From: a virus
Virus record (IMG/VR): IMGVR_UViG_3300042519_001698
Strand: one strand, 5' to 3'
Length of the DNA: 64,000 nt
Numbering within the stretch: the first letter of the stretch is position 1; each line of letters starts with the position of its first letter. Below the pieces are notes generated by a model. It was given only the letters and a program-made list of their open reading frames with translations, was not told where the DNA came from and searched no databases. A program made the translations under genes and the position numbers. Positions 51,725-64,000 of this stretch are shown in pieces.

Positions 51725-53743
51725 ATGGCAGTAGATTTCTTTGAAGATGGTCCGACCACAAATCCTAAAAAAGTTAGAAAAGGTTCTAATACCCCAATTT
51801 TAGATAATTTTTCAAGAGACTTAATTAAACTCGCCGAAGAGGGTAAAATTGACCCTGTTGTCGGTAGAGATAAAGAAGTGAAAAGAATAGCACAAATTCT
51901 TTCTCGTAAAAAAAAGAATAACGCAGTAATTGTTGGTGATGCTGGTGTTGGTAAATCGGCACTCGTTGAAAAATTAGCACTATCCATTGTTAAAGGGGAT
52001 TGTCCAACAAATTTACTCGATAAGAGAATAATGTCTTTAGATTTAACTTCACTTGTTGCAGGTACAAAGTACCGTGGTCAATTTGAAGAAAGAATTAAAG
52101 CGATTCTAAATGAGTTACAAGAAGCTCCAAATGTGATTGTTTTCATTGATGAGTTACACACTATGGTTGGTGCGGGTAATGCAAGTGGTTCTATGGATGC
52201 TGCAAATATTTTGAAACCTGCATTGGCGAGAGGTGAAATGCAATGTATTGGAGCAACCACATTTGACGAATATAAAAAATCGATTGAAAAAGATTCAGCA
52301 TTAGTTAGACGATTCCAAAAAATTGTTTTAAAGGAACCAACTCAACCTGAAACAATTGATATTTTAAAAAATCTACAATCATCATATGAGGATTTTCATA
52401 AGGTAAAATATGATGATGGTGTTGTTGAGGTAATCGTAAAATTATCTGCGAGATATATTACAGATAGACAATTTCCCGATAAGGCGATTGATGTATTAGA
52501 TGAATTAGGTTCTGAAAAGAAAATATCAATGAGGATTCCCGAATCAATTGAAAAATTAAAAAGGGCGGCAGATGAAATTAAAGAAAAGAAAATTTTAGTT
52601 GTTAAGAGTCAAAATTACGAGGAGGCTGCGAAGTTAAGAGATGGTGAAAGGAAAGTAATTGAAAAACTTGAGGATGAAAAAAAGAAATGGTCTGAAAAAC
52701 AAAAGGACAATAAAATTCCTGTGAGTATTGATGATGTCTATTCTATAGTATCAAACATGACGGGGGTTCCAATTATGAAGTTAGACTCAAAAGAAACTGA
52801 GAAACTTTTAAAAATGGAAGATACATTATCTTCAAAGGTTATTGGTCAAGAAGAAGCTATTAGTGCTATTTCTAAGGCGATTAGAAGAAATCGTGTCGGA
52901 ATTAAAGAAGGTAATAAACCAATCGGCTCATTTATTTTTATGGGTTCAACGGGAGTCGGTAAAACATTTTTAGCAAAGTCAATTGCGGAATTGTTATTTG
53001 ATGATCCTGATAAAATTATTCGTGTTGACATGAGTGAATTTATGGATAGACACAATGTTTCTAAATTAATTGGTTCTCCTCCGGGTTATGTTGGTTATGA
53101 TGAAGGTGGACAATTAACTGAAAAAATTAAGAACAATCCTTTTTCTGTTATATTGTTTGATGAGATTGAAAAAGCACATAAAGATGTTTTCAATTTACTA
53201 CTTCAAATTTTAGACGAGGGTCATTTAACAGATTCATTTGGTCGTAAGATTAACTTCACCAATACTATCGTTATTATGACATCTAACATAGGTGCTAAGA
53301 AAGTATCTGAGTTTGGTGGTGGTGTTGGATTTAGTACAAATGGTAGTGAAGAACAAAAATATGAAGTAAGAAAAACCATGATTCAAAAATCGTTGAAACA
53401 ACAATTTAATCCTGAATTCTTAAATCGTATTGATGATATTATCTTATTTAACGCACTTAATGAAGAGACGTTGAAGAAAATTATCACTATTGAGTTATCT
53501 AAATTAAATAACAGATTAGTAGATAAAGGATATAAGATTACGTTTGAAAAGACAATTGCAAATCGAGTTTATGAATTAAATAAACAAGAAGAATATGGTG
53601 CACGACCACTTAAAAGAATCATTCAAAATCTATTGGAGGACTTCTTAAGTGAGGAAATATTAAAGGGTAACATTAAAGAGAATGAACAAATAACTTTAAA
53701 ATTTAAAGATGAAAATCTTACAATTGTAAAAAAAAGTTCATAA
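51725..53743 (+). CDS. clpC: ClpC-type Hsp100 AAA+ ATPase lacking the Clp-N domain
   Basis: GDAGVGKS/FIDELH, UVR M-domain (QNYEEAAKLRD), GSTGVGKT/FDEIEKAH, VGF ClpP-binding loop. Confidence 0.88.
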   Translation: MAVDFFEDGPTTNPKKVRKGSNTPILDNFSRDLIKLAEEGKIDPVVGRDKEVKRIAQILSRKKKNNAVIVGDAGVGKSALVEKLALSIVKGDCPTNLLDKRIMSLDLTSLVAGTKYRGQFEERIKAILNELQEAPNVIVFIDELHTMVGAGNASGSMDAANILKPALARGEMQCIGATTFDEYKKSIEKDSALVRRFQKIVLKEPTQPETIDILKNLQSSYEDFHKVKYDDGVVEVIVKLSARYITDRQFPDKAIDVLDELGSEKKISMRIPESIEKLKRAADEIKEKKILVVKSQNYEEAAKLRDGERKVIEKLEDEKKKWSEKQKDNKIPVSIDDVYSIVSNMTGVPIMKLDSKETEKLLKMEDTLSSKVIGQEEAISAISKAIRRNRVGIKEGNKPIGSFIFMGSTGVGKTFLAKSIAELLFDDPDKIIRVDMSEFMDRHNVSKLIGSPPGYVGYDEGGQLTEKIKNNPFSVILFDEIEKAHKDVFNLLLQILDEGHLTDSFGRKINFTNTIVIMTSNIGAKKVSEFGGGVGFSTNGSEEQKYEVRKTMIQKSLKQQFNPEFLNRIDDIILFNALNEETLKKIITIELSKLNNRLVDKGYKITFEKTIANRVYELNKQEEYGARPLKRIIQNLLEDFLSEEILKGNIKENEQITLKFKDENLTIVKKSS

Positions 53744-53780
53744 ATAGTTGACTTTTTTGTAAAGTTATATATATTTATAT

Positions 53781-53883
53781 TCTCAATAGGTTCTCTTTGT
53801 CGATTACCTTTTCGTTTTATTAAAGTAAGTGGGGTTGAACCCACTGAAAGACCTTAAACCCCGACATCTTGTTGGGGTTTTTT
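53781..53883 (+). ncRNA. Candidate ~100-nt structured small RNA
   Basis: ORF-free; TATTTATA at 53772; three stems plus terminator AAACCCCGACA-TCT-TGTTGGGGTTT-T3. Confidence 0.35.
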
Positions 53884-53927
53884 ATTTAAATTTTTTTTTA
53901 TCAGGGGATTTTCGTATATTTACTTAT

Positions 53928-54149
53928 ATGAAAAAATATACATTAATTATGGCTATCGGTGTTGTATCAACATTGATGTCATGTGGTTCAGGGTCAACCA
54001 CAAAAGAATCAACTGACTCTTTAGCGGCTCAAGTTGACACTGCTGCAGTATCTGCAACAGATTCTACAACTGCACAAATCCCAACAGTGGGAGGTGGTAC
54101 AGCAAAGGAAGATGCTGAAAAACCAGTATCTAACGAGGCTGTAAAATAA
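53928..54149 (+). CDS. Small lipoprotein; start moved to MKKYTL
   Basis: Basic N-terminus, hydrophobic core, LMSC lipobox, disordered S/T/A/D tail. Confidence 0.8.
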   Translation: MKKYTLIMAIGVVSTLMSCGSGSTTKESTDSLAAQVDTAAVSATDSTTAQIPTVGGGTAKEDAEKPVSNEAVK

Positions 54150-54151
54150 GG

Positions 54152-54186
54152 AATTGGGGGTTGGTTTTAATCGGCCCCCAATTTTT
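54152..54186 (+). terminator. Intrinsic terminator
   Basis: AATTGGGGGTTG/CGGCCCCCAATT stem followed by a T-run. Confidence 0.8.
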
Positions 54187-54203
54187 AATTTAAAATTTGT
54201 GAT

Positions 54204-54632
54204 ATGGAAAATATAATAGATAAACAAGGAGACTTAATATTACTTAGAGGATTACCTGGTTCAGGAAAATCCACTTTGGGTAATGTAATATTACAATTAC
54301 CAAATAACAATCCACAAGAAGTTTTATCTGCTGATGATTTTTTTGTAAACAACGAAGGGGAATATACCTTCGATGGTACAAAATTAAAAGAGGCTCACAA
54401 TTACTGTCAATTTAGATGTTCTGAAAGAATGAGACAACAAATAGTTAGAATTGTTGTTGCAAATACATTTACCGAAGATTGGGAAATGAAACCCTATTTT
54501 GACATGGCGGAAAGATACAATTATAGGGTTCATACTTTAATTGTAGAAAATAGACACGAAAGTGAAAATGTTCACGGAGTCCCTGAAGATAAACTTCAAA
54601 AAATGAAGAATAGGTTTGAAATAAAATTATAG
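54204..54632 (+). CDS. AAA_33/N4BP2-like polynucleotide kinase
   Basis: LLRGLPGSGKST, SADDFF, VANTF..WEMKPY, HGVPEDKL. Confidence 0.85.
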   Translation: MENIIDKQGDLILLRGLPGSGKSTLGNVILQLPNNNPQEVLSADDFFVNNEGEYTFDGTKLKEAHNYCQFRCSERMRQQIVRIVVANTFTEDWEMKPYFDMAERYNYRVHTLIVENRHESENVHGVPEDKLQKMKNRFEIKL

Positions 54633-54881
54633 ATGAGTCAATTTATTGAATCTTATTTTAAAACAACGTTATCACCAAAAAAAGTTAAAATGAAATTCTC
54701 TTCTCATACATTTAAAAATCAATGGGCAGTATACCCATTACCGTTTGCATACATTTATTTTGAAACATGTGAACCAGAATCACATAAATCATTATTCCAA
54801 AACAAAATATGTGCGGTGTATTTGTCTTTTAATTGGTTAAAGTGGACTTACAATATTGGATTTTATAAACCAATTAATTAA
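54633..54881 (+). CDS. Hypothetical aromatic-rich protein
   Basis: 82 aa, coupled within the kinase-ligase operon. Confidence 0.6.
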   Translation: MSQFIESYFKTTLSPKKVKMKFSSHTFKNQWAVYPLPFAYIYFETCEPESHKSLFQNKICAVYLSFNWLKWTYNIGFYKPIN

Positions 54882-56059
54882 TGTTGGAAATTTTAGAAAA
54901 ATACCACAAAGACGGTTTGTTACATAAACAAATCCACCCAACCTACGACTTAACTATTTGGAATTATTCACCAAAGGTTCAATACGAAAAATTATGGGAT
55001 GATATTACTTTGCAATGTCGTGGGTTGGTAACCAATTCGAAAGGAGATATTGTTGCAAGGCCATTTAAAAAATTCTTCAACTACGAGGAGCATGAACCAG
55101 AAGAAATACCCAATGAAAATTATGTTGTTTATGAAAAGATGGATGGATCTTTAGGTATTCTTTTTTATTATGAAGAAGAATTAACCGATGAGAGAAGATA
55201 CAACATATGGTTTAATAACAATTATGAAACAGGAATGGAAAGGTTCTTTGACCCTAACAATTTACCTGATTTTGATAATTCATATTATGAACCGACACCT
55301 AAAACAAAAGGTGAATGGATTTTAGCAACTCGTGGTTCTTTTACATCACCTCAGGCAATTAAGGGTAAAGAAATACTTGACAGACACGACATCAGTGCGT
55401 GGAGAAAAGACAATACATATTTGTTTGAAATTATTTATCCTGAAAATAGAATTGTGGTCGATTACAAAGGTGAGGAAAAATTAGTTGTTCTTGGTGCGAT
55501 TCATACTGAAACTGGAAATGAGGTTCCCGATAGTTCCTTGTTTTTTTTACAAGAAAGTGGATTTGAAATTGTAACAACATATAAGACATGGGGAGAAGGG
55601 TACGATTTACTTAAAGAAGAAATTAGTAAAGACAGAGAAGGTTATGTAATTCGTTTTAAAAACGGATTTAGAATGAAAATTAAAGGAGATGAATATAAAC
55701 GTCTTCATAAGATATTAACCAACATATCCAATAGAGATATATTTGAATATGTAAAAGAAGGGAAACCATTAGACGAAATACTTGATAAAGTTCCCGACGA
55801 ATTTTATAATTGGGTTAAAGAAACTAAAGAAGATTTTGAACATCAATTCAAAACAATTGATAAAGACTATACAAGAACATATAAAACCATTATAGACATT
55901 AATGGAATTACCGATAAAAAGGCATTTGCGAACTACGCATTAAGTTATAAACACTCAGCGGTATTGTTTGCAATGTATGATAATAAGAAGTACGACCATA
56001 TTATTTGGAAAACACTATACCCAACATACTCAAAACCATTTAAGAAAGATGACAACTGA
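54881..56059 (+). CDS. RNA ligase (T4 Rnl1-like)
   Basis: CRGL, PFKKFFN, EKMDGSLGI, ATRGSF, FEII, EGYV, KIK. Confidence 0.9.
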   Translation: MLEILEKYHKDGLLHKQIHPTYDLTIWNYSPKVQYEKLWDDITLQCRGLVTNSKGDIVARPFKKFFNYEEHEPEEIPNENYVVYEKMDGSLGILFYYEEELTDERRYNIWFNNNYETGMERFFDPNNLPDFDNSYYEPTPKTKGEWILATRGSFTSPQAIKGKEILDRHDISAWRKDNTYLFEIIYPENRIVVDYKGEEKLVVLGAIHTETGNEVPDSSLFFLQESGFEIVTTYKTWGEGYDLLKEEISKDREGYVIRFKNGFRMKIKGDEYKRLHKILTNISNRDIFEYVKEGKPLDEILDKVPDEFYNWVKETKEDFEHQFKTIDKDYTRTYKTIIDINGITDKKAFANYALSYKHSAVLFAMYDNKKYDHIIWKTLYPTYSKPFKKDDN

Positions 56060-56522
56060 TAAAAAAAGATTATATCTTGATGATGTGAGAACACCACATG
56101 CCGAAGATTGGATTATTGTTAGAAATTACGACCAATTTAAATCTACTATAAGATTATACGGATTAAATAATTTTGAGGTTATTTCTTTAGACCATGATTT
56201 AGGGGATAGTGCAATGGTTGAATATTATAATAATGTGAAAGATAATTACATATTAAATTATGATAATATAAATGAAAAAACAGGAATGGATTGTTGTAAA
56301 TTTTTAGTTAATGAAAGTATTGAAAAAAATATACCATTACCAACAGTATATGTCCATTCCGCAAACCCAATTGGTAGTCATAATATGATGGGTTACATTA
56401 ATAACTATTTAAAAAATTGTCATTTAGAACAATCATGTATACGAGTTGAAATTAAACATACAGTTGATGAAAGTTTTATGTTAAGTCCCGAGGCTAGAAG
56501 AGCGAAATGGAAAAGACCTTAA
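56049..56522 (+). CDS. Cyclic-phosphate-processing receiver-like domain protein; start moved to MTTDKK
   Basis: LYLDDVRTP, ISLDHDLG, TGMDCCKFL, HSANPIG. Confidence 0.8.
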   Translation: MTTDKKRLYLDDVRTPHAEDWIIVRNYDQFKSTIRLYGLNNFEVISLDHDLGDSAMVEYYNNVKDNYILNYDNINEKTGMDCCKFLVNESIEKNIPLPTVYVHSANPIGSHNMMGYINNYLKNCHLEQSCIRVEIKHTVDESFMLSPEARRAKWKRP

Positions 56523-56983: not shown

Positions 56984-57017
56984 ATCCCCGTCAGTTTCTA
57001 CTTTCGGGGATTTTTTT
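56984..57017 (+). terminator. Probable terminator between convergent units
   Basis: ATCCCCG...CGGGGAT followed by a T-run; 14-nt loop. Confidence 0.55.
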
Positions 57018-58575
57018 ATAACATCATTCTTGAACCAATTAGGAAGTTACTTAAGAATGGGGAACCCGGCTGAGTGTTTCCACTTAATTTATAGTTAAAA
57101 CTAAAACCAAATCGTTTGGTTAATTTATAGTCAAAAGAACTACCTAATAAGAATCCCATATGTCTATTAACTGTTGTCACCCCTGTAGAACTATTCCAAG
57201 AAATTGGTGAGAACATTGTAAAAATTTGTGGAGACACCGTTAATTTTTTTGAATACGTATATGGTTTAGTCCAAAACGCAATCGCAGAACTTGCCATATT
57301 ATAATCATATCCCTTTCCATTATTAAGGAATAAATTAATTATACCGACATTGTATCCAAATGTTCCCTTTTTAGGTGTTGGTTTAATCCAAGTATAACCT
57401 AACAGATTCATATAGTTACCCCCAAGATATGCAAATGCGGTTCCGTATGAATGTATAGCGTCTAAGTTACCATCTTTAGTCATTGCCATTTTAGTATACC
57501 CACCAGTTGTTACAATTGAACTTAAATCACTATTAATTGTCAATCCCCCACTAAAACTTTCATCTCCAGCCATAGATGATTTACTTATACCCGTAGATAT
57601 TTGTACCAAATACCTATTATCTGGTGTTTGTGCCGTTGTTAAATCGGAAGATAAAAGTAATGGATTTGTTATTGATTGTTTTTTCTTTTCTTCCTCTTTT
57701 TTCTTTTTCTCTTCCTCTTTCTTTTTTTCCTCTTCTTTCTTACTTTCTTCTTTTTTTTCTTCACTCTTACTTTCTGATTTTTTCTCTTCAGTTTTTGTCT
57801 CTTCTTTCTTTTCTTCGGTTTTAGTTTCCGTTTTCTTTTCTTCTGTCTTACTCTCAGTCTTACTTTCAGTTTTTGATTCTGTTTTAGTTTCCGTTTTACT
57901 TTCTGATGATGAACTACTGCTAGATGATGAACTACTGTTAGATGATCCACCGCTAGATGATGAACTACCACCACTTGCCGGTGGTGGTGACGAACTACTA
58001 CTTGATGGTGGTGGGGTACTTACAGGTGGTGGTGTTGATACACTACTTGCCGCCGACGATGCTGCACCACTTGCAGCACCACTTGCAGACGAACTTGCCG
58101 CAGAACTTGCGGCGGATGACGCCGCACTACTTGCGGCTGAGGATGCTGAATTACTAGCGGCGGATGATGCACTAGCCGCAGCAGCGTCCGCCGCCGCTTT
58201 CGCCGCAGCATCGGCAGCAGCTTTTGCCGCCGCGTCCGCCGCCGCTCTTGCTGCAGCATCTGCCGCCGCTCTTGCTGCAGCATCTGCCGCCGCTCTTGCT
58301 GCGGCTTCTTGAGCTAATCTAACCACATCATTTTGTGGACATGGTGTTGCAAATACACTATTCACCCATATTTGAAATGCACCACTACTTATGTCGGCTA
58401 ATGTTACAATTTTAGACTTACCTCTAATAACCGCAACGGTTTGATTTTGACCAAATGGGATTATAACCACATATACTTTTTGATCACACGGATCAATATA
58501 TGTTTGTGTTATGGTTTGACCAAACGACTCACTACAAAAAAATAATATTAGGAGAGATACTATTATTTTTTTCAT
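57016..58575 (-). CDS. Secreted/outer-membrane protein: Cys-pair N-domain, Ala/Ser/KE-rich stalk, C-terminal predicted beta-barrel
   Basis: Signal peptide ending ESFG-Q; AAAD repeats; alternating-residue strands in the last ~240 aa. Confidence 0.7.
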   Translation of the reverse strand: MKKIIVSLLILFFCSESFGQTITQTYIDPCDQKVYVVIIPFGQNQTVAVIRGKSKIVTLADISSGAFQIWVNSVFATPCPQNDVVRLAQEAAARAAADAAARAAADAAARAAADAAAKAAADAAAKAAADAAAASASSAASNSASSAASSAASSAASSAASSSASGAASGAASSAASSVSTPPPVSTPPPSSSSSSPPPASGGSSSSSGGSSNSSSSSSSSSSSESKTETKTESKTESKTESKTEEKKTETKTEEKKEETKTEEKKSESKSEEKKEESKKEEEKKKEEEKKKKEEEKKKQSITNPLLLSSDLTTAQTPDNRYLVQISTGISKSSMAGDESFSGGLTINSDLSSIVTTGGYTKMAMTKDGNLDAIHSYGTAFAYLGGNYMNLLGYTWIKPTPKKGTFGYNVGIINLFLNNGKGYDYNMASSAIAFWTKPYTYSKKLTVSPQIFTMFSPISWNSSTGVTTVNRHMGFLLGSSFDYKLTKRFGFSFNYKLSGNTQPGSPFLSNFLIGSRMML

Positions 58576-59390
58576 TACTTATTATTCAATCCGATTGAAA
58601 TTTGATGATATCCTCTGATTGGGTCTGTATCTAATTTTAATGTGACGAATTTGAAATCTTTTATAATACCAACTTTAAATGTGGTGAACGAAGAATTTGA
58701 TTTCGGAAATGAGATACCACCTAAGTCATCTTTACCTTGCCATCTGATAACCTCATTACCAAATCCTATCATACCATGTATTCCTATTTTACCTATTCTT
58801 TTACCGGCACCAACATAGAAAGTGGATTCTTTTTTCCAATCATTTTTACTAAGTGGAAAATCAACATTGTTAATTTGACCATATGGATAATAGCTGTTTT
58901 GGTCTATTGCATAAGTCATTACATAATCCATAATGAAATATCCTTTCTTACCACCAACAGTTCCCCAATATGATACTTGTTTATTATTTGTATGTCCAAA
59001 TCCAAAAGAGGTATAAACTCTTTCTTTTCTAATTGTGTCTCTTTTACCACTTTCGTATATGTGAATTACACTTCTTTGTCTCCACCCAAAATCATCATAC
59101 CAAATGTAAGGTATTGGTTGATACCACCCCCAATTACCCCAATAATAACCAAACTGATTATTTCTATTCCAATTTTGAATACGAACTCTACCACGTTGGT
59201 CTGGTTGTAATTGTTGTGGTGAGTTATTTCTCCAACTACTTACATTATTTTGTTGTGGTACAGATGGTTGAACTCTTGTTTGAGTTGATTGTGATGATGA
59301 TGGAATACTTCCACCAGTTTGTCTCCAAGTTGATACTTGACCAAACATTAATGTCGGTGTTAACATTAAAAATAATAAGAGAGTTTTCAT
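58575..59390 (-). CDS. Secreted protein with Q/R/W-rich N-terminus and predicted C-terminal beta-barrel
   Basis: Signal peptide; amphipathic strands (TSFGFGH, FYVGAGK, GMIGFG, FKVGII, ISIGL). Confidence 0.65.
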   Translation of the reverse strand: MKTLLLFLMLTPTLMFGQVSTWRQTGGSIPSSSQSTQTRVQPSVPQQNNVSSWRNNSPQQLQPDQRGRVRIQNWNRNNQFGYYWGNWGWYQPIPYIWYDDFGWRQRSVIHIYESGKRDTIRKERVYTSFGFGHTNNKQVSYWGTVGGKKGYFIMDYVMTYAIDQNSYYPYGQINNVDFPLSKNDWKKESTFYVGAGKRIGKIGIHGMIGFGNEVIRWQGKDDLGGISFPKSNSSFTTFKVGIIKDFKFVTLKLDTDPIRGYHQISIGLNNK

Positions 59391-59413
59391 AAATGTGTTT
59401 TTATATAAATATT

Positions 59414-59442
59414 AAAAAAGGGGGTTATAACACCCCCCTTTT
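59414..59442. terminator. Bidirectional-type intrinsic terminator
   Basis: A6-GGGGGT...ACCCCCC-T4. Confidence 0.75.
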
Positions 59443-59465
59443 AAATAATTATCTAAATCTTTATG

Positions 59466-60188
59466 TTACTTGGTGAAGATTCCTTTCTTAATCATCCTAT
59501 CAAGAATGTTCGCACATGCAATGTCTAACGCCTTTTTGGTTGCAATACTAATTGTTGACTGATTGAACTTAATTGGATCAATGGTTGCGTCTGATAATAA
59601 AGTTAATTCTCTTTTTGTTGTTGCTTCACCCAAACCTGACCCACCAAATACAACACCTGTCTCGGCATTTGTAAATCTAACCTGAAGACCAATACGAGTT
59701 ACCATATTGTCTTTAATACCGTCTTTAAGGTTGATGGTTTCATCTTCTGATACTGAGTAGTCATAACACTCAATTGTTACAAAATACTCTGCCAAGTTGA
59801 TTTTACCACGACCATCTAACTTATTTTCAGAAATACCTGCGGCCGATGCTTGAAATTGTTTTACCATACGGTTCTTAATTTCTGTCTTATCTTCTGTGAA
59901 TTTGAATCTGTTTAAGTTTTCAAGGTATTCCATTGATATATTTGCTACACCCAAACCTACACGTTTTTCTTTCAATTCGGGGTACATCTCATACATCTCA
60001 TCAGAAATACCTGCTTTTAATATTTGAATTGGAATTTGAGGACCGTCGTAGTCCATGTAAGCACTTATATCTCTTTTCTTTTCAAAGTCTGCCTTATAGT
60101 CTTCCGTTTTAGTTTTACCTATTGTTTGAGCACTAACGACAACACCGCTTAGTAAATAAACACTTAATAATATTAATAATTTTTTCAT
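59466..60188 (-). CDS. CsgG/HfaB-family protein; start moved to MKKLLILL
   Basis: Signal peptide; LENLNRFKFTE, AEYFVTIECYDY, IGLQVRFTNAETG, STISIATKKAL resemble the CsgG fold. Confidence 0.75.
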   Translation of the reverse strand: MKKLLILLSVYLLSGVVVSAQTIGKTKTEDYKADFEKKRDISAYMDYDGPQIPIQILKAGISDEMYEMYPELKEKRVGLGVANISMEYLENLNRFKFTEDKTEIKNRMVKQFQASAAGISENKLDGRGKINLAEYFVTIECYDYSVSEDETINLKDGIKDNMVTRIGLQVRFTNAETGVVFGGSGLGEATTKRELTLLSDATIDPIKFNQSTISIATKKALDIACANILDRMIKKGIFTK

Positions 60189-60193
60189 ACATT

Positions 60194-60430
60194 TTATTTT
60201 AATTCTTTTAAACAAATTCTATCTAATTCTTCGGGTCTTAATGCAAATGTTTGTTCTACGTGACCATTATTTGAAATCAAATGAACCATCCATAATCCTA
60301 ATCTTTTTTTCTCTATTTGAATTCTTTGACCTGTTATAAATCCCATGTCCATTAAACGTAATCTTAAACAAGGTTTACAATTTTCACATATTTCACTTTG
60401 GGGGACATCTATAATATCATAGGATTTCAT
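60194..60430 (-). CDS. feoA: FeoA-domain protein
   Basis: RLRLMDMGFITGQRI...FALRPEE. Confidence 0.8.
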   Translation of the reverse strand: MKSYDIIDVPQSEICENCKPCLRLRLMDMGFITGQRIQIEKKRLGLWMVHLISNNGHVEQTFALRPEELDRICLKELK

Positions 60431-60452
60431 GTTATTTTATTTATAAATATAT

Positions 60453-60483
60453 AAAAAGGGGAGTTAAAAACTCCCCCTTTTTT
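60453..60483. terminator. Bidirectional-type intrinsic terminator
   Basis: AAAAAGGGGAGTT-AAA-AACTCCCCCTTTTTT. Confidence 0.8.
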
Positions 60484-60733
60484 AACCTTCTAATACTTCT
60501 TCTTTCTTTTTGTGAGAGAATTTATCCAAAGTGTCAGCACCCATTCCAATTCCCGTGATTAACATCACCGCATTTACCAATTCAGGTGATGGAGCAAAAT
60601 CCGCGTGAGAGAACGAATTTAAAATCATTGTAATACATAGGAATAAAGCACCTATCATTGCTATTACCGGTTTTACCGATATTGATCCTCTTTCATCTTT
60701 GAAAAGTTCAATAACCCATTGTTTAAAGTTCAT
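60482..60733 (-). CDS. Small two-TM membrane protein (holin-like)
   Basis: Two hydrophobic segments; charged C-terminus. Confidence 0.6.
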   Translation of the reverse strand: MNFKQWVIELFKDERGSISVKPVIAMIGALFLCITMILNSFSHADFAPSPELVNAVMLITGIGMGADTLDKFSHKKKEEVLEG

Positions 60734-60762
60734 AATTTTTTGTTTTTTGTCTTTTGTTTATT

Positions 60763-61392
60763 TTATCCTTCCATATGCATTTCTGCATTTTCATCTTTTA
60801 TTTTACCACATTTCAAACACTCCTCAATACCGTCTCCGTCTGAATCACCCCAAACGTGTTGACATTGTCTGTGTGCGAAATACATATCAATTTTACCGTC
60901 ACCATCGAAATCAATACCATCCATTGTACCATCACCGTCTTCATCAACTTCTACACCTGTTCTTGGTTGAACCGTTGGTACCTGTTCAAATGTATCGTTT
61001 ACCTTTTCTATTTTTGAGTTTTCAATAGCAGTTTGAAACGCCTCAGGTATGATTGGTGTGTTGTTTGGTGGGGTATCTGGTAAATCGGAGGTACTTGATA
61101 ATGATATACCATCTTCCTCATCCATCTTTTGAACTAACATCTTATCCTTATCAGTATCACTAAACCAATAGTCAATGATTTTACCATAAGAACCAATGAA
61201 TGCTCCTAATAACAATAATAGAAGTTCTTTCCACTCTCCTTCTATTGCTGATTTATTTAATATAGCGAAGAACATTCCTCCTATTATAAACATAAATCCA
61301 CCCAAAACTAATGCGGTGATGTACCATCTTCTGGCCATCATATTACTTAATAAATCTTTAAAACCACTTGGGGGTTGATTATTTTCTGCCAT
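60763..61392 (-). CDS. Two-TM membrane protein with DxDxDG repeats and C-terminal Cys/His motif
   Basis: DEDGDGTMDGIDFDGDGKID; CQHVWGDSDGDGIEECLKCG. Confidence 0.7.
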   Translation of the reverse strand: MAENNQPPSGFKDLLSNMMARRWYITALVLGGFMFIIGGMFFAILNKSAIEGEWKELLLLLLGAFIGSYGKIIDYWFSDTDKDKMLVQKMDEEDGISLSSTSDLPDTPPNNTPIIPEAFQTAIENSKIEKVNDTFEQVPTVQPRTGVEVDEDGDGTMDGIDFDGDGKIDMYFAHRQCQHVWGDSDGDGIEECLKCGKIKDENAEMHMEG

Positions 61393-61415
61393 TTTACTTA
61401 TTTTCTTTTTTTAAT

Positions 61416-61574
61416 TTATGGTCTATTCCATGACCATCCTTTTTTTCTACCTCTTATTATTAAATAACTACAACCTCCAATAAAAAATGTTAAAAACATC
61501 GATTGAGAATCAAATACAAACATAGCTATCATACATAATACGATTACAACTATAAAACTTAATCCCTGTTCCAT
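61416..61574 (-). CDS. 52-aa two-TM membrane peptide (absent from the ORF track)
   Basis: MEQGLSFIVVIVLCMIAMFVFDSQSMFLTFFIGGCSYLIIRGRKKGWSWNRP. Confidence 0.65.
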   Translation of the reverse strand: MEQGLSFIVVIVLCMIAMFVFDSQSMFLTFFIGGCSYLIIRGRKKGWSWNRP

Positions 61575-61583
61575 TTTAAATTT

Positions 61584-61892
61584 TTACCACTTAGGGGCCT
61601 CTTCCTTAAACTCATCACCTTCTTTTTTCTTAGGTTTTGCAACCGGTTGTGCTGGTGTTGACTTTTCTTTAATGATAACAGTTTTACCACCACCCGCAGA
61701 TTGTTGTTGAGTTTGATTAGTTGTAATGTTAATTACAGGTGCAGCTTGTACTGGTGCCGGTTCAGCTTTGTCACCACCTAAAAGTGTTGATAACCATACT
61801 CCACCCGCAGTTACTAATGTTCCTGCAACCCCAATTATTGTCTTTTTTAATCCTGACCAAGTTCCTTCTGATTGTTCTACTTCTTCTGACAT
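61584..61892 (-). CDS. Single-TM membrane-anchored protein
   Basis: IIGVAGTLVTAGGVWL followed by a P/A/Q/K-rich tail. Confidence 0.7.
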   Translation of the reverse strand: MSEEVEQSEGTWSGLKKTIIGVAGTLVTAGGVWLSTLLGGDKAEPAPVQAAPVINITTNQTQQQSAGGGKTVIIKEKSTPAQPVAKPKKKEGDEFKEEAPKW

Positions 61893-61911
61893 TTTATTTG
61901 TTTTTAATTTT

Positions 61912-62283
61912 TTAGTTTATTTTATTGAAATCTGTAATTCCTAATTGTTTATTATTAGAATCGAATAACCCTATTCTGTATGCTGATGATGGTAATGCGT
62001 TAGTGTATACTTTTAAAAGGTTATCACCGGCAATTACATTCATTGTTTCTTTAGACACTACCCTATTTGAAATGTCGAATATCTTAACCGTTACCGAACC
62101 CGCGGTTTCAGTTTTAACGTTCATTGCCACTTCTGAAGTGACAAATGCTGATTGTAATTTAATACCAATAGAACTTGTCATTTTAAGATCTTCCGATACT
62201 GATTGAGGTGTTGGTAAAATGTCATCTTTGTAACATCCTGTTAAAATTGTGGATAATAACACCATTGAGAGAATTTTTTTCAT
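61912..62283 (-). CDS. Lipoprotein with T9SS-CTD-like Ig fold; start moved to MKKILS
   Basis: LTGC lipobox followed by YKDD; VKIFDISNRVV...LPSSAY. Confidence 0.7.
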   Translation of the reverse strand: MKKILSMVLLSTILTGCYKDDILPTPQSVSEDLKMTSSIGIKLQSAFVTSEVAMNVKTETAGSVTVKIFDISNRVVSKETMNVIAGDNLLKVYTNALPSSAYRIGLFDSNNKQLGITDFNKIN

Positions 62284-62294
62284 TTTTGTCATTT

Positions 62295-62636
62295 TTAATT
62301 TACTATTATTTTTGTTTTTTTCAATTCATTTCTATCCACACTTTCAAGTACCAAATATAAATATCCTTTAGGTAGGGAATTGGTATAAATCTTCTTGACA
62401 TTTTCACCATTTTGTCCAATAAACTTTTCTCTACTTATAATTTGATTTGTTGTAACATCTATTAAAGTTAACATGTAGGTACCTTCAGACGGTAAGTCAA
62501 AATATATTGATTGACCATTTGTAACTTTACTTTCATCCACATTGAATATTTTTTCAACAGTCATAATTGGGGTTGGTAATTCAGGTTTAGTACACCCCAC
62601 CAATAAAATCAACGATATTAATATTATCTTTTTCAT
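62295..62636 (-). CDS. Lipoprotein with T9SS-CTD-like Ig fold
   Basis: LVGC lipobox; C-terminus LPKGYLYLVL...KTKIIVN. Confidence 0.7.
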   Translation of the reverse strand: MKKIILISLILLVGCTKPELPTPIMTVEKIFNVDESKVTNGQSIYFDLPSEGTYMLTLIDVTTNQIISREKFIGQNGENVKKIYTNSLPKGYLYLVLESVDRNELKKTKIIVN

Positions 62637-63529
62637 TAAAATTGAAAGTTTGTTCCTATCATGAATAGAATTGGGTTACTCTTTTTATATCCAACCGATT
62701 CACTTAATTTATCCCAAGTTGTGTTATACCTAATATTGGTATTCAATACAAATCTTTTAGTTATTTTCCAATCAATAGATGTACCATAATATAAGTCCAA
62801 ATTGAAATCCTTTAAATATGCCAAATCGGATTCAGTACCATCTTTAAATACTTTGTAGATATCACTCATTGCAAATATTTGTGGTGAGACGTTTACTCTC
62901 TTTGTTTTCAATGTATAGGTGTACATCACCATACCTCTATAACTTATTTCACTTGATGCCGGCACCATTGGATATATTAAATCTTTAAAATCACCATTTT
63001 CATCTACCGTATATTTTCCTTCCCATTGACCTTCATATGTTCCCCAAAAAGATTTTGATGTAATTAAACTATATCCAAATGTTCCAAACTTTTTAGTTCT
63101 GAATACATCTATGAATGATAGTGTAATATCTTTTTGGAAATCAAAATCGGTTGAATAAAATGATTGTAATGTAGTAGTTCTCTTATTCGTATTTCTATTG
63201 AAACCATATCCTACTCCATAATATTTCCATATAGGGTTTATTGACGCTGCGAATGTGTGTCCCCATTGACCATTCATAGATGATTTATTGTAACCCAAAT
63301 TAATAGTAGTTGATACTTGTCTACCAATTATACCAACTGAAAGATTTGATGATGATAGAACATCTTTTGAAAAATTAATATAAGATTGTAATATACCCAC
63401 ATCGTTCCAATCATCACTTTCTCCAAATAATTCTTTTGGTGATAATTGTAATGTATCAGGTTTTACGATTTGTGCGTTTACAACAAACCCAATTAAAACT
63501 AACGATATGGTTAATAATAGTTTTTTCAT
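62636..63529 (-). CDS. Outer-membrane beta-barrel protein
   Basis: Signal peptide; many amphipathic strands; C-terminal IGTNFQF (terminal Phe, BAM-type). Confidence 0.75.
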   Translation of the reverse strand: MKKLLLTISLVLIGFVVNAQIVKPDTLQLSPKELFGESDDWNDVGILQSYINFSKDVLSSSNLSVGIIGRQVSTTINLGYNKSSMNGQWGHTFAASINPIWKYYGVGYGFNRNTNKRTTTLQSFYSTDFDFQKDITLSFIDVFRTKKFGTFGYSLITSKSFWGTYEGQWEGKYTVDENGDFKDLIYPMVPASSEISYRGMVMYTYTLKTKRVNVSPQIFAMSDIYKVFKDGTESDLAYLKDFNLDLYYGTSIDWKITKRFVLNTNIRYNTTWDKLSESVGYKKSNPILFMIGTNFQF

Positions 63530-63825
63530 TTATATAATAAATCTAATATTTTACTTTTGAATTCTCTGTAAAAAACTGATTCGATGCTCCACCTCATAAG
63601 TTCGTCTTTTCTTATCCTATATCTATATCCGTCAAATATAAATTTTTCAGTCTCAATATCATCTATTAGATAAGCCACTTCCATATCTACTTCTTCTTCT
63701 TCTCTTCTATATTGATTATACCAACTACTAGGAACTTGAATAAAACACTTAACATTTACAATTTTATATTTACCTGTGTGAGAGATAAAATTCTTCATCT
63801 CATTATATTCAAATGATATATTCAT
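63526..63825 (-). CDS. Hypothetical protein
   Basis: 99-aa ORF. Confidence 0.65.
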   Translation of the reverse strand: MNISFEYNEMKNFISHTGKYKIVNVKCFIQVPSSWYNQYRREEEEVDMEVAYLIDDIETEKFIFDGYRYRIRKDELMRWSIESVFYREFKSKILDLLYK

Positions 63826-63830
63826 AATTT

Positions 63831-64000
63831 TTAATTTATTTTTATTTTTAATTGTGTTCCATTCTTATTGACAGCATCGGTTGTTGATATTGAAGTTAAA
63901 CCCAAAGTACCACTCAATCCTATTAATGGTAAAAATGTTATTTTATATTCTGTTGTTTTATCCAATAATGTTGAACCATCAGTAATCAATGAACCTAATG
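63831..64000 (-). CDS. 3' end of a gene truncated by the window edge (...GLTSISTTDAVNKNGTQLKIKIN)
   Basis: Open frame to TAA at 63831; beta-rich. Confidence 0.6.
   Translation of the reverse strand, partial: LGSLITDGSTLLDKTTEYKITFLPLIGLSGTLGLTSISTTDAVNKNGTQLKIKIN

Follow-up and report, generated by a model that had tools for sequence, protein, structure and literature searches.

The window analysed here is the whole 64,000-nucleotide stretch of the IMG/VR virus record IMGVR_UViG_3300042519_001698, and the element in question is a block of 13 co-oriented genes at its end, which are named below by their lower coordinate (Table 1). The phage is a giant myophage of Flavobacteriia that carries a conserved block of at least 11 kb, whose products are exported to the host envelope; the region described here makes up the promoter-distal 7 kb of this block. 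The conserved core of the block consists of three genes, which encode an inner-membrane tether (61584), a CsgG-fold protein (59466) and a barrel protein with an N-terminal domain (57016). The best reading, to which a probability of about 40% is given, is that the block encodes a platform that re-dresses the envelope and surface of the infected cell. This reading is favoured because of the surface signals of the block and its relatives, which are a lipoprotein export motif, cargo of the type IX secretion system (T9SS), lectins and cohesins, and because of the pairing of a barrel with an adaptor. An export signal, either a signal peptide, a lipobox or a membrane helix, is present at the start of 11 of the 13 genes and is absent only from the FeoA gene 60194 and from 63526; the signal peptides of 57016, 58575, 59466 and 62636 are cleavable. 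The initial annotation of this DNA, which was made from the sequence alone, had described about 7 kb of co-oriented genes that nearly all target the envelope, and that description holds for the minus strand.

Three phage clades, with 175 loci in all, share the triad of tether, CsgG-like protein and barrel, which was found in about 160 of these loci and also in the cultured Flavobacterium phage immuto. The tether family is present in 157 of the 175 loci, and the C-terminal Trp is found in all 157 members. The tether has been seen only in phages, and in the other clades its gene lies directly upstream of the CsgG-like gene, which it overlaps or abuts. The barrel family of 57016 is present in 161 loci across the three clades and, in the sampled loci, directly follows the CsgG-like gene unless an insert intervenes. 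Synteny in relatives had been proposed as a check in the initial annotation, and the gene order is indeed kept, with variable inserts, in about 40 IMG/VR loci that have full flanks. A module built around the CsgG-like protein had been proposed there as well; the syntenic envelope block stands, however, the conserved core is the triad and not the CsgG-like protein alone.

Queries with distant homologues led to two further phage clades, of 9 and 126 IMG/VR loci, whose CsgG-like proteins are about 43–50% identical. In the largest further clade (the P0135 clade) this protein is a lipoprotein. Seven loci read in the further clades feature the same order, namely a cohesin protein with a T9SS domain (1.7e-11), the tether, the CsgG-like protein, the barrel, a C-type lectin (7e-18) and a 150-aa secreted protein. 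Phage immuto (160 kb) encodes a lectin (gp013), gp014, a cohesin protein (gp015) with a T9SS-type tail as read from sequence, a tether homologue (gp016, 1e-16), a CsgG-like protein (gp017, 1.5e-79) and gp018, which has the same architecture of N-terminal domain, spacer and beta-tail as 57016. The profile of the window barrel has no match to gp018, and the likeness is one of position and architecture only. The 58575 gene was found neither in the sampled loci of other clades nor in immuto. A tblastn search with the CsgG-like protein (E ≤ 1e-3) against 50,697 phage records found only immuto, which sets this block apart from the CsgG/CsgF genes of SAR11 myophages that the initial annotation had named. 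In the searchable literature phage csgGF genes were found only for pelagiphages and for Melnitz, and the present module was in no paper found.

The CsgG-like protein itself has no direct Pfam match at E ≤ 0.1, none in PHROG or NCBIfam and none by phmmer against the PDB, and its link to CsgG is visible only via distant homologues. A scan of 1.84 billion cluster representatives with the protein returned 212 clusters at E ≤ 0.001, and at the same threshold the family is very abundant, with 5,889 proteins in public data, besides 523 IMG/VR stretches. The family alignment contains the window protein and 32 full-length proteins, mostly from the cluster scan, that are 21–96% identical to it (33 in total). 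Pfam CsgG (PF03783) is matched by 14 of the 33 (best 1.9e-17) and LpoB by six of the aligned homologues, and the family profile matches E. coli CsgG (3x2r) at E 0.004 over residues 1–194. The AlphaFold 2 (AF2) model of the window protein has a predicted local distance difference test (pLDDT) score of 79.6. Its best Foldseek match is CsgG (4uv2, E 6e-8), and the best VIA match is E. coli CsgG with a Z of 13.0 and a root mean square deviation of 3.0 over 171 aligned residues, followed by Cj1090c (Z 11.0), PelC (Z 9.8) and LptE (Z 8.8). The sole strong match in the viral structure library BFVD is a phage CsgG (2.8e-7). The model and the homologues thus agree with the CsgG family named in the initial annotation, and the assignment of fold and superfamily is sound. 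A second CsgG-like paralogue was considered upstream in relatives (L003:2082-2759; handles of this form denote loci of relatives) and was rejected, as it shares only a C-terminal helix of 30 residues (hhalign probability 6.4%).

A CsgG fold could mean a true CsgG-type channel, a nonameric outer-membrane pore either for the uptake of solutes or for the secretion of an amyloid-like substrate such as the Gln/Asn-rich 58575. CsgG is the best structural and profile match, in the alignment the Tyr-Pro of the E. coli constriction loop coincides with the best-conserved family motif, Y-P-E-L and then K-R-V-G, and 58575 features a region rich in Gln/Asn and aromatic residues. A channel is nevertheless very unlikely. 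The lipobox Cys is absent from the window protein and its close phage relatives, which have a signal peptide without Cys, and most of the more remote homologues, those of bacteria and of the P0135 phage clade among them, keep a G/A-C lipobox. The equivalent of hairpin 1 in 59466 has 19 residues, of which 7 are charged and lie on both faces of both arms, whereas hairpin 1 of E. coli CsgG has 25 residues and one uncharged face per arm. The phage hairpin is thus six residues shorter (18–19 residues vs 25), an uncharged face on both arms is found in only 2 of the 33 family members, and two members have only 11 hairpin residues. This test covers hairpin 1; hairpin 2 lies outside the alignment and is modelled at low confidence. 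No csgA/B or csgE/F gene was found in Pfam and PHROG scans of all open reading frames (ORFs) of the block, in keeping with the earlier remark that no CsgA/B curlin is visible, and 58575, the possible substrate, is missing from the sampled loci of other clades and from immuto. The phage-built secretion or uptake pore that the initial annotation had put forward first is therefore unlikely, because there is neither a lipid anchor nor an amphipathic membrane hairpin. The 59466 protein probably serves in the periplasm, as a ring or adaptor under the outer membrane, and the ring form is suggested by relatives such as CsgG and PelC.

Of the three signal-peptide barrels proposed in the initial annotation, two are retained and the third is a lead. 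The AF2 model of 62636 is all-beta with about 12–14 strands (pLDDT 65), and its top 50 Foldseek and VIA matches are outer-membrane (or mitochondrial) beta-barrels with one low-probability exception. These matches are tied at Z 10–14 and no barrel subfamily can be named for that reason. The relatives of 62636 are 79–92% identical, and a separate homologue search with this protein found only relatives that are 85–92% identical. The barrel of 57016 is assigned via paralogy, as its C-terminal 220 residues are paralogous to 62636 (BLASTP 2e-4; jackhmmer 2e-68), and the protein ends in Leu, not in an aromatic residue. Its N-terminal domain, of a disulfide type, comprises about 65 aa with two Cys that are invariant in the alignment, and its spacer comprises about 230 aa of low complexity that are rich in Ala, Ser, Pro and Glu/Lys. 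The Glu/Lys tract resembles a single-alpha-helix spacer. The ORFs 57624, 57669, 57957 and 58020, which lie within 57016-58575 (57600–58300, both strands), are frame artefacts of the repetitive spacer. The barrel-family profile has no significant PDB or Pfam match. No Pfam or PDB match was found for 58575 either, including with the profile of its family; an atlas lead from a language model (OMP_b-brl_2, score 0.90) and a subtype in relatives that ends in Phe suggest that it is possibly a small barrel.

The pairing of a CsgG-fold protein with a barrel also allows for an exporter of the PelBC or LptDE type, in which a phage-directed glycan or glycolipid would cross the outer membrane by way of a CsgG-fold ring and a barrel. 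PelC and LptE are structural neighbours of the 240-aa protein, PelB (Z 13.9) and PgaA (Z 13.8) head the list of barrel matches, and many polysaccharide and lipopolysaccharide genes have been reported in bS21 phages (PMC9723584). The barrel matches are tied with many unrelated barrels, however, and the block showed no genes for glycan synthesis or export, which makes such an exporter quite unlikely.

A bacterial counterpart of the pair was found with an alignment of four sequences, where a scan of genomes with the single protein gave no match. CsgG-like homologues are present in five genomes of the FCB group (phmmer 1e-27 to 1e-41), and all five are lipoproteins. The CsgG-like lipoprotein adjoins a probable barrel protein in three of the five loci (L081:7947-9899, L082:7011-8645 and L083:4979-6967), and in the other two genomes (L084 and L085) the adjacent gene is instead a second CsgG-like paralogue. 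The bacterial partners have the layout of 57016 and consist of a signal peptide, an N-terminal domain, a charged linker and a beta-rich domain that ends in R-F, and the three match one another at 1e-30 to 1e-55. Since bacterial loci hold a CsgG-like lipoprotein with a barrel-type neighbour, the sequences argue that the pairing of this CsgG subfamily with such a neighbour predates the phages.

The surface signals come from the two lipoproteins of the block and from lectin and cohesin proteins in the block of relatives. The lipoproteins 61912 and 62295 are paralogous (E 8e-8), their lipobox Cys is invariant in 40 relatives, and the Lys two residues past this Cys (position +3 in the numbering of PMC5080379) is at least 90% conserved in both paralogue groups. 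The C-X-K-(D/E)2 motif is the optimal signal that sends lipoproteins to the surface in Capnocytophaga, and related acidic signals are used in Flavobacterium and Bacteroides (PMC5080379). The 61912 protein is probably surface-exposed because its mature N-terminus, C-Y-K-D-D, fits this motif; that of 62295, C-T-K-P-E-L, is a partial match. The initial annotation had described two lipoproteins with folds like the C-terminal domain (CTD) of T9SS cargo. Their status as lipoproteins is borne out by the invariant Cys, but the T9SS sorting domain (PF18962, Por_Secre_tail) scores only 14.8 bits on them against a cut-off of 27. Weak CTD matches occur in 16 of the 40 lipoprotein relatives (best 0.0014), and DUF3244 is matched by 17 of the 40. 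No genuine T9SS sorting domain was found among the window proteins, and the Bacteroidota-specific sorting signals claimed for the window are replaced by the lipoprotein export motif on 61912 as its own signal. A genuine T9SS CTD (1.7e-11) is found on the cohesin protein of a relative (L098).

The gene cut by the window edge, which had been noted as a truncated upstream gene, is the C-terminal end of a secreted protein that is whole in L003, whose CsgG-like protein is 98% identical. There, two secreted paralogues of 555 and 761 aa with C-type-lectin and dockerin-/cohesin-like segments are encoded upstream, and the larger one (L003:4435-6720) has a signal peptide, a Lectin_C match (7e-6) and dockerin-like and cohesin-like segments.

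The proposed platform would be assembled around the CsgG-fold protein, which would form a ring or adaptor under the outer membrane and would work with a barrel as PelC does with PelB or LptE with LptD, and not as a CsgG pore. The C-terminal peptide of the tether would dock on the platform and link it to the inner membrane. The 62636 barrel, the possible small barrel 58575, the two lipoproteins, at least one of them surface-exposed, and the lectin/cohesin proteins encoded just upstream, which are T9SS cargo in relatives, would join it, and the combined products would give the infected cell a new surface, probably to mask receptors, to exclude other phages or to make the cell sticky. The small membrane proteins, 60482 foremost, would belong to lysis control, and FeoA would be a mobile passenger. 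A role in the virion was rejected, as proteins with Sec and T9SS signals could not take part in cytoplasmic assembly.

Several findings weigh against a surface platform. Display at the surface does not need an inner-membrane tether, and the model of the 62636 barrel is of only moderate confidence. The bacterial partners have no detectable homology to the phage barrels (hmmsearch; hhalign probability 5.6%), and the parallel is one of architecture alone. An endolysin, a holin, a class-3 lipase and a weak Rz-like match recur beside or inside the block in relatives, which fits lysis as well. Additionally, terminators split the block and its inserts are varied (a TonB-dependent receptor, a lipase, FeoA), as in a hotspot of unrelated accessory genes.

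The main rival is a lysis apparatus, in which the tether, the CsgG-like protein and the barrel span the envelope and either follow the endolysin and disrupt the outer membrane in place of spanins, or time lysis together with holin-like proteins of the 60482 type. The tether has a single helix (residues 19–37), and its gene and the CsgG-like gene overlap or abut as i-spanin and o-spanin genes do; the P0135 clade has a lipidated form of the CsgG-like protein. Of the 175 loci, 43 encode an endolysin (GH19 or Amidase_2) in the fetched flank; its median distance to the CsgG-like gene is about 3.3 kb, and in 29 of these 43 loci it has a 60482-family gene or a Pfam holin gene within 600 nt. The class-3 lipase gene is directly upstream of the CsgG-like gene in 14 loci, and a lysis role has been proposed for the CsgGF proteins of pelagiphages and Melnitz (PMC9004378). 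The 60482 family has 135 members, which include small proteins beside endolysins or a holin in relatives; such a protein directly precedes a GH19 endolysin in L072 and another an Amidase_2 endolysin in L089. In L136 the order is a 60482-family gene, the Pfam holin Phage_holin_4_1 and a peptidoglycan-binding GH19 endolysin, and 60482 may be an antiholin because this separate holin gene stands between the family member and the endolysin. The 60482 protein itself has no holin-family match in Pfam or PHROG; one of its two helices was predicted by a hydropathy scan and the second was read from the sequence. Lysis support, a minor idea in the initial annotation, thus gains weight from the endolysin and holin genes that adjoin the 60482 family in relatives, and it remains a rival.

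Other features count against lysis. Two complete giant relatives carry a lone endolysin without a neighbouring holin, as a lysis role for the block would allow, but this endolysin lies 40–45 kb from the block, and tblastn with the GH19 proteins of relatives detected no endolysin gene in the window. Compared with two-component spanins, the type-II topology and the gene overlap fit; the periplasmic spacer of the tether is rich in Pro/Ala and is not a coiled coil, the partner, the CsgG-like protein, is large and not lipidated in its window copy, and only a part of the relatives have an adjacent endolysin. Beside the triad of L089 there is a separate Rz-like candidate, and the lectins, cohesins and T9SS cargo have no place in a lysis apparatus. 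The lysis reading of the triad is accordingly considered doubtful, although it is the most serious rival. The L089 region (L089:8725-9379) encodes the Amidase_2 endolysin, then a membrane-anchored coiled-coil protein with a weak Rz-like match (E 0.001) and then an overlapping signal-peptide ORF without a lipobox; the last two are a possible atypical spanin pair.

It is tentatively proposed that the triad may be a previously unrecognised trans-envelope machine of Bacteroidota phages, in which a bacterial two-gene cassette of CsgG-like lipoprotein and barrel was combined with a tether that has an invariant C-terminal Trp, and which either replaces spanins or anchors or exports phage-made surface material.

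The block may also have no common function and may be a hotspot of unrelated envelope accessory genes next to lysis genes. The inserts do vary among relatives (FeoA, lipase, TonB-dependent receptor and lipoprotein, tail-collar protein, the 99-aa gene), and there are internal terminators. This explanation is unlikely, however, since the order and adjacency of the triad are kept across clades whose CsgG-like proteins are only 43–55% identical, and since the pair of CsgG-like protein and barrel recurs in bacteria. Only 20 of 80 loci yielded FeoA, whose identification in the initial annotation is confirmed by its Pfam score (Table 1). In the window the FeoA gene precedes the CsgG-like gene, whereas in relatives (L005, L008 and L058) it directly follows that gene and has its own terminator and TATTTATA; it behaves as a small mobile passenger. 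The 63526 gene is found in only 13–14 of 80 related loci, and the 60763 family in 139 loci across three clades. The four small membrane proteins named in the initial annotation are confirmed by hydrophobic helices in 60482, 60763, 61416 and 61584.

Further inserts were observed in relatives. The class-3 lipase (PF01764, 2.6e-28; L008:9248-9991) has no signal peptide; its gene immediately precedes the CsgG-like gene in 14 relatives from the window clade, and in L008 a protein with a tail-collar domain and a 357-aa protein are encoded beside it. A TonB-dependent-receptor-like barrel (Plug and OMP_b-brl_3) is inserted at this site, together with a 400-aa lipoprotein, in the block of six relatives (L055:6469-9920 and L072:6306-9763 among them).

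Transcription of the block would run from the cut gene 63831-64000 through 63526, 62636, 62295, 61912, 61584, 61416, 60763 and 60482 to a terminator with TATTTATA, then through FeoA 60194 and 59466 to a second terminator with TATTTATA, and finally through 58575 and 57016. Both terminator hairpins are strong, and in each case TATTTATA, a putative late motif in the initial annotation, follows the hairpin within about 3 nt and a start codon follows about 12–14 nt further on. The hairpin and TATTTATA after the CsgG-like gene are kept in the relatives L003, L005, L011, L017 and L043. This compact stop-and-restart layout of hairpin, TATTTATA and start codon recurs among relatives. The TATTTATW motif is not enriched, with 34 occurrences in the window vs 34.8 expected from shuffled sequence, and only its placement is suggestive, not its count. 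The block is not one operon, because at least two terminators cut it, and the sequence points to at least three transcription units.

Table 1. Features of the gene block and of the set that meets it in the 64,000-nt window.
Feature	Position	Strand	Remarks
Gene block	57016-64000	minus	13 co-oriented genes
519-aa barrel protein	57016..58575	minus	signal peptide, N-terminal domain, spacer, C-terminal outer-membrane barrel
271-aa secreted protein	58575..59390	minus	Gln/Asn- and Trp-rich N-terminal half, beta-rich C-terminal half
Intrinsic-terminator hairpin	59414..59438	minus	read from sequence; followed by TATTTATA at 59404-59411
240-aa CsgG-fold protein	59466..60188	minus	ordinary cleavable signal peptide, no lipobox
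78-aa FeoA-domain protein	60194..60430	minus	PF04023, E 2.3e-5, 24.8 bits vs cut-off 23; no export signal
Intrinsic-terminator hairpin	60452..60478	minus	read from sequence; followed by TATTTATA at 60442-60449 and the FeoA start codon
83-aa candidate holin or antiholin	60482..60733	minus	charged C-terminus, two predicted helices
209-aa membrane protein	60763..61392	minus	helix at residues 27–45; acidic, Cys-containing C-terminal domain
52-aa small membrane protein	61416..61574	minus	hydrophobic segment at residues 3–21; no family match
102-aa inner-membrane tether	61584..61892	minus	N-in helix, Pro/Ala/Lys-rich periplasmic spacer, acidic-Pro-Trp C-terminus
126-aa lipoprotein	61912..62292	minus	mature N-terminus C-Y-K-D-D(-I)
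113-aa lipoprotein	62295..62636	minus	beta-sandwich-like domain, invariant lipobox Cys
297-aa outer-membrane beta-barrel	62636..63529	minus	signal peptide, C-terminal Phe
99-aa protein, variable insert	63526..63825	minus	no export signal; no Pfam or PHROG match
Secreted C-type-lectin protein, 3' end, cut by window edge	63831..64000	minus	matches C-terminus of L003:4435-6720
ClpB-like double AAA ATPase	51725-53743	plus	on the side of the RNA-repair set
P-loop kinase	54204-54632	plus	RNA-repair set
T4 Rnl1-type RNA ligase	54881-56059	plus	RNA-repair set
cREC-REC cyclic-phosphate-processing domain protein	55968-56522	plus	RNA-repair set

The window has a low G+C content of about 31%, and among public records it is closest to IMG/VR contigs that reach 335 kb. 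This would fit the bS21-encoding myophages of freshwater Bacteroidota (PMC9723584); the paper that describes these phages mentions neither CsgG nor this block. The other flank of the block is the window edge. An RNA-repair-type set on the plus strand (51725-56522) meets the block tail to tail, and it may counter tRNA-cleaving defences.

Little is known of how Bacteroidota phages breach or remodel the outer membrane. Few large phages of freshwater Flavobacteriia are as abundant as these, the CsgG-like family has thousands of metagenomic members, and the triad offers a concrete hypothesis that is open to genetics in phage immuto on Flavobacterium strain LMO8. The analysis also points to an unstudied bacterial pair of CsgG-like lipoprotein and barrel in Bacteroidota, Ignavibacteriales, Cloacimonadota and Rhodothermales, and a CsgG label on a phage gene need not imply a curli-type pore. 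The hairpin test, the bacterial gene pair, the tether with its invariant Trp, the split between lipidated and non-lipidated clades and the 60482 family on the holin side are new here.

Among known systems, the channel of curli (type VIII) secretion, E. coli CsgG (PDB 4UV2, 4UV3 and 6L7A), is the best fold match of 59466, to which it is also linked by profile and by the Tyr-Pro at the constriction loop. Unlike E. coli CsgG, the window protein has no lipid anchor and its shorter hairpin is charged on both faces, and the phage block has a barrel and an inner-membrane tether as partners in place of CsgA, B, E and F. The csgG/csgF genes of pelagimyophages (HTVC008M type) and of the OM43 phage Melnitz are likewise CsgG-superfamily genes in T4-like aquatic phages without curlin genes, and surface or lysis roles have been proposed for them (PMC7029224, PMC9004378). 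However, they have no detectable sequence similarity to the present gene (tblastn, E ≤ 1e-3), CsgF is not found here, and the host phylum and the partners differ. PelC-PelB and LptE-LptD also feature an alpha/beta protein of the same superfold that is encoded next to an outer-membrane barrel, presumably its partner, and the bacterial homologues of 59466 are lipoproteins. There is no sequence relation to these systems, the phage copy is not lipidated, and in the phage a long spacer links the barrel to an N-terminal domain. Two-component spanins (lambda Rz/Rz1, T4 PseT.3/PseT.2) share with the triad a type-II inner-membrane gene that abuts or overlaps the gene of an outer-membrane-directed partner, and in relatives a location near holin and endolysin genes. 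They differ in that the tether has no coiled coil, its partner is a folded protein of 240 aa and not a small Pro-rich lipoprotein, and the endolysin is 40 kb off in this genome type. Phage barrels and lipoproteins that are put into the host envelope are known from lambda Lom and Bor, T5 Llp and Cor, of which Llp and Cor mask receptors. These are single genes, whereas the present block is a conserved multi-gene set that includes lectin and cohesin proteins. Finally, the block resembles the T9SS cohesin/dockerin surface proteins and PorP/SprF-type barrels of Bacteroidota in that relatives (L098, and immuto with gp015) encode CTD cargo beside barrels, while the window proteins have no PorP/SprF or CTD match above threshold.

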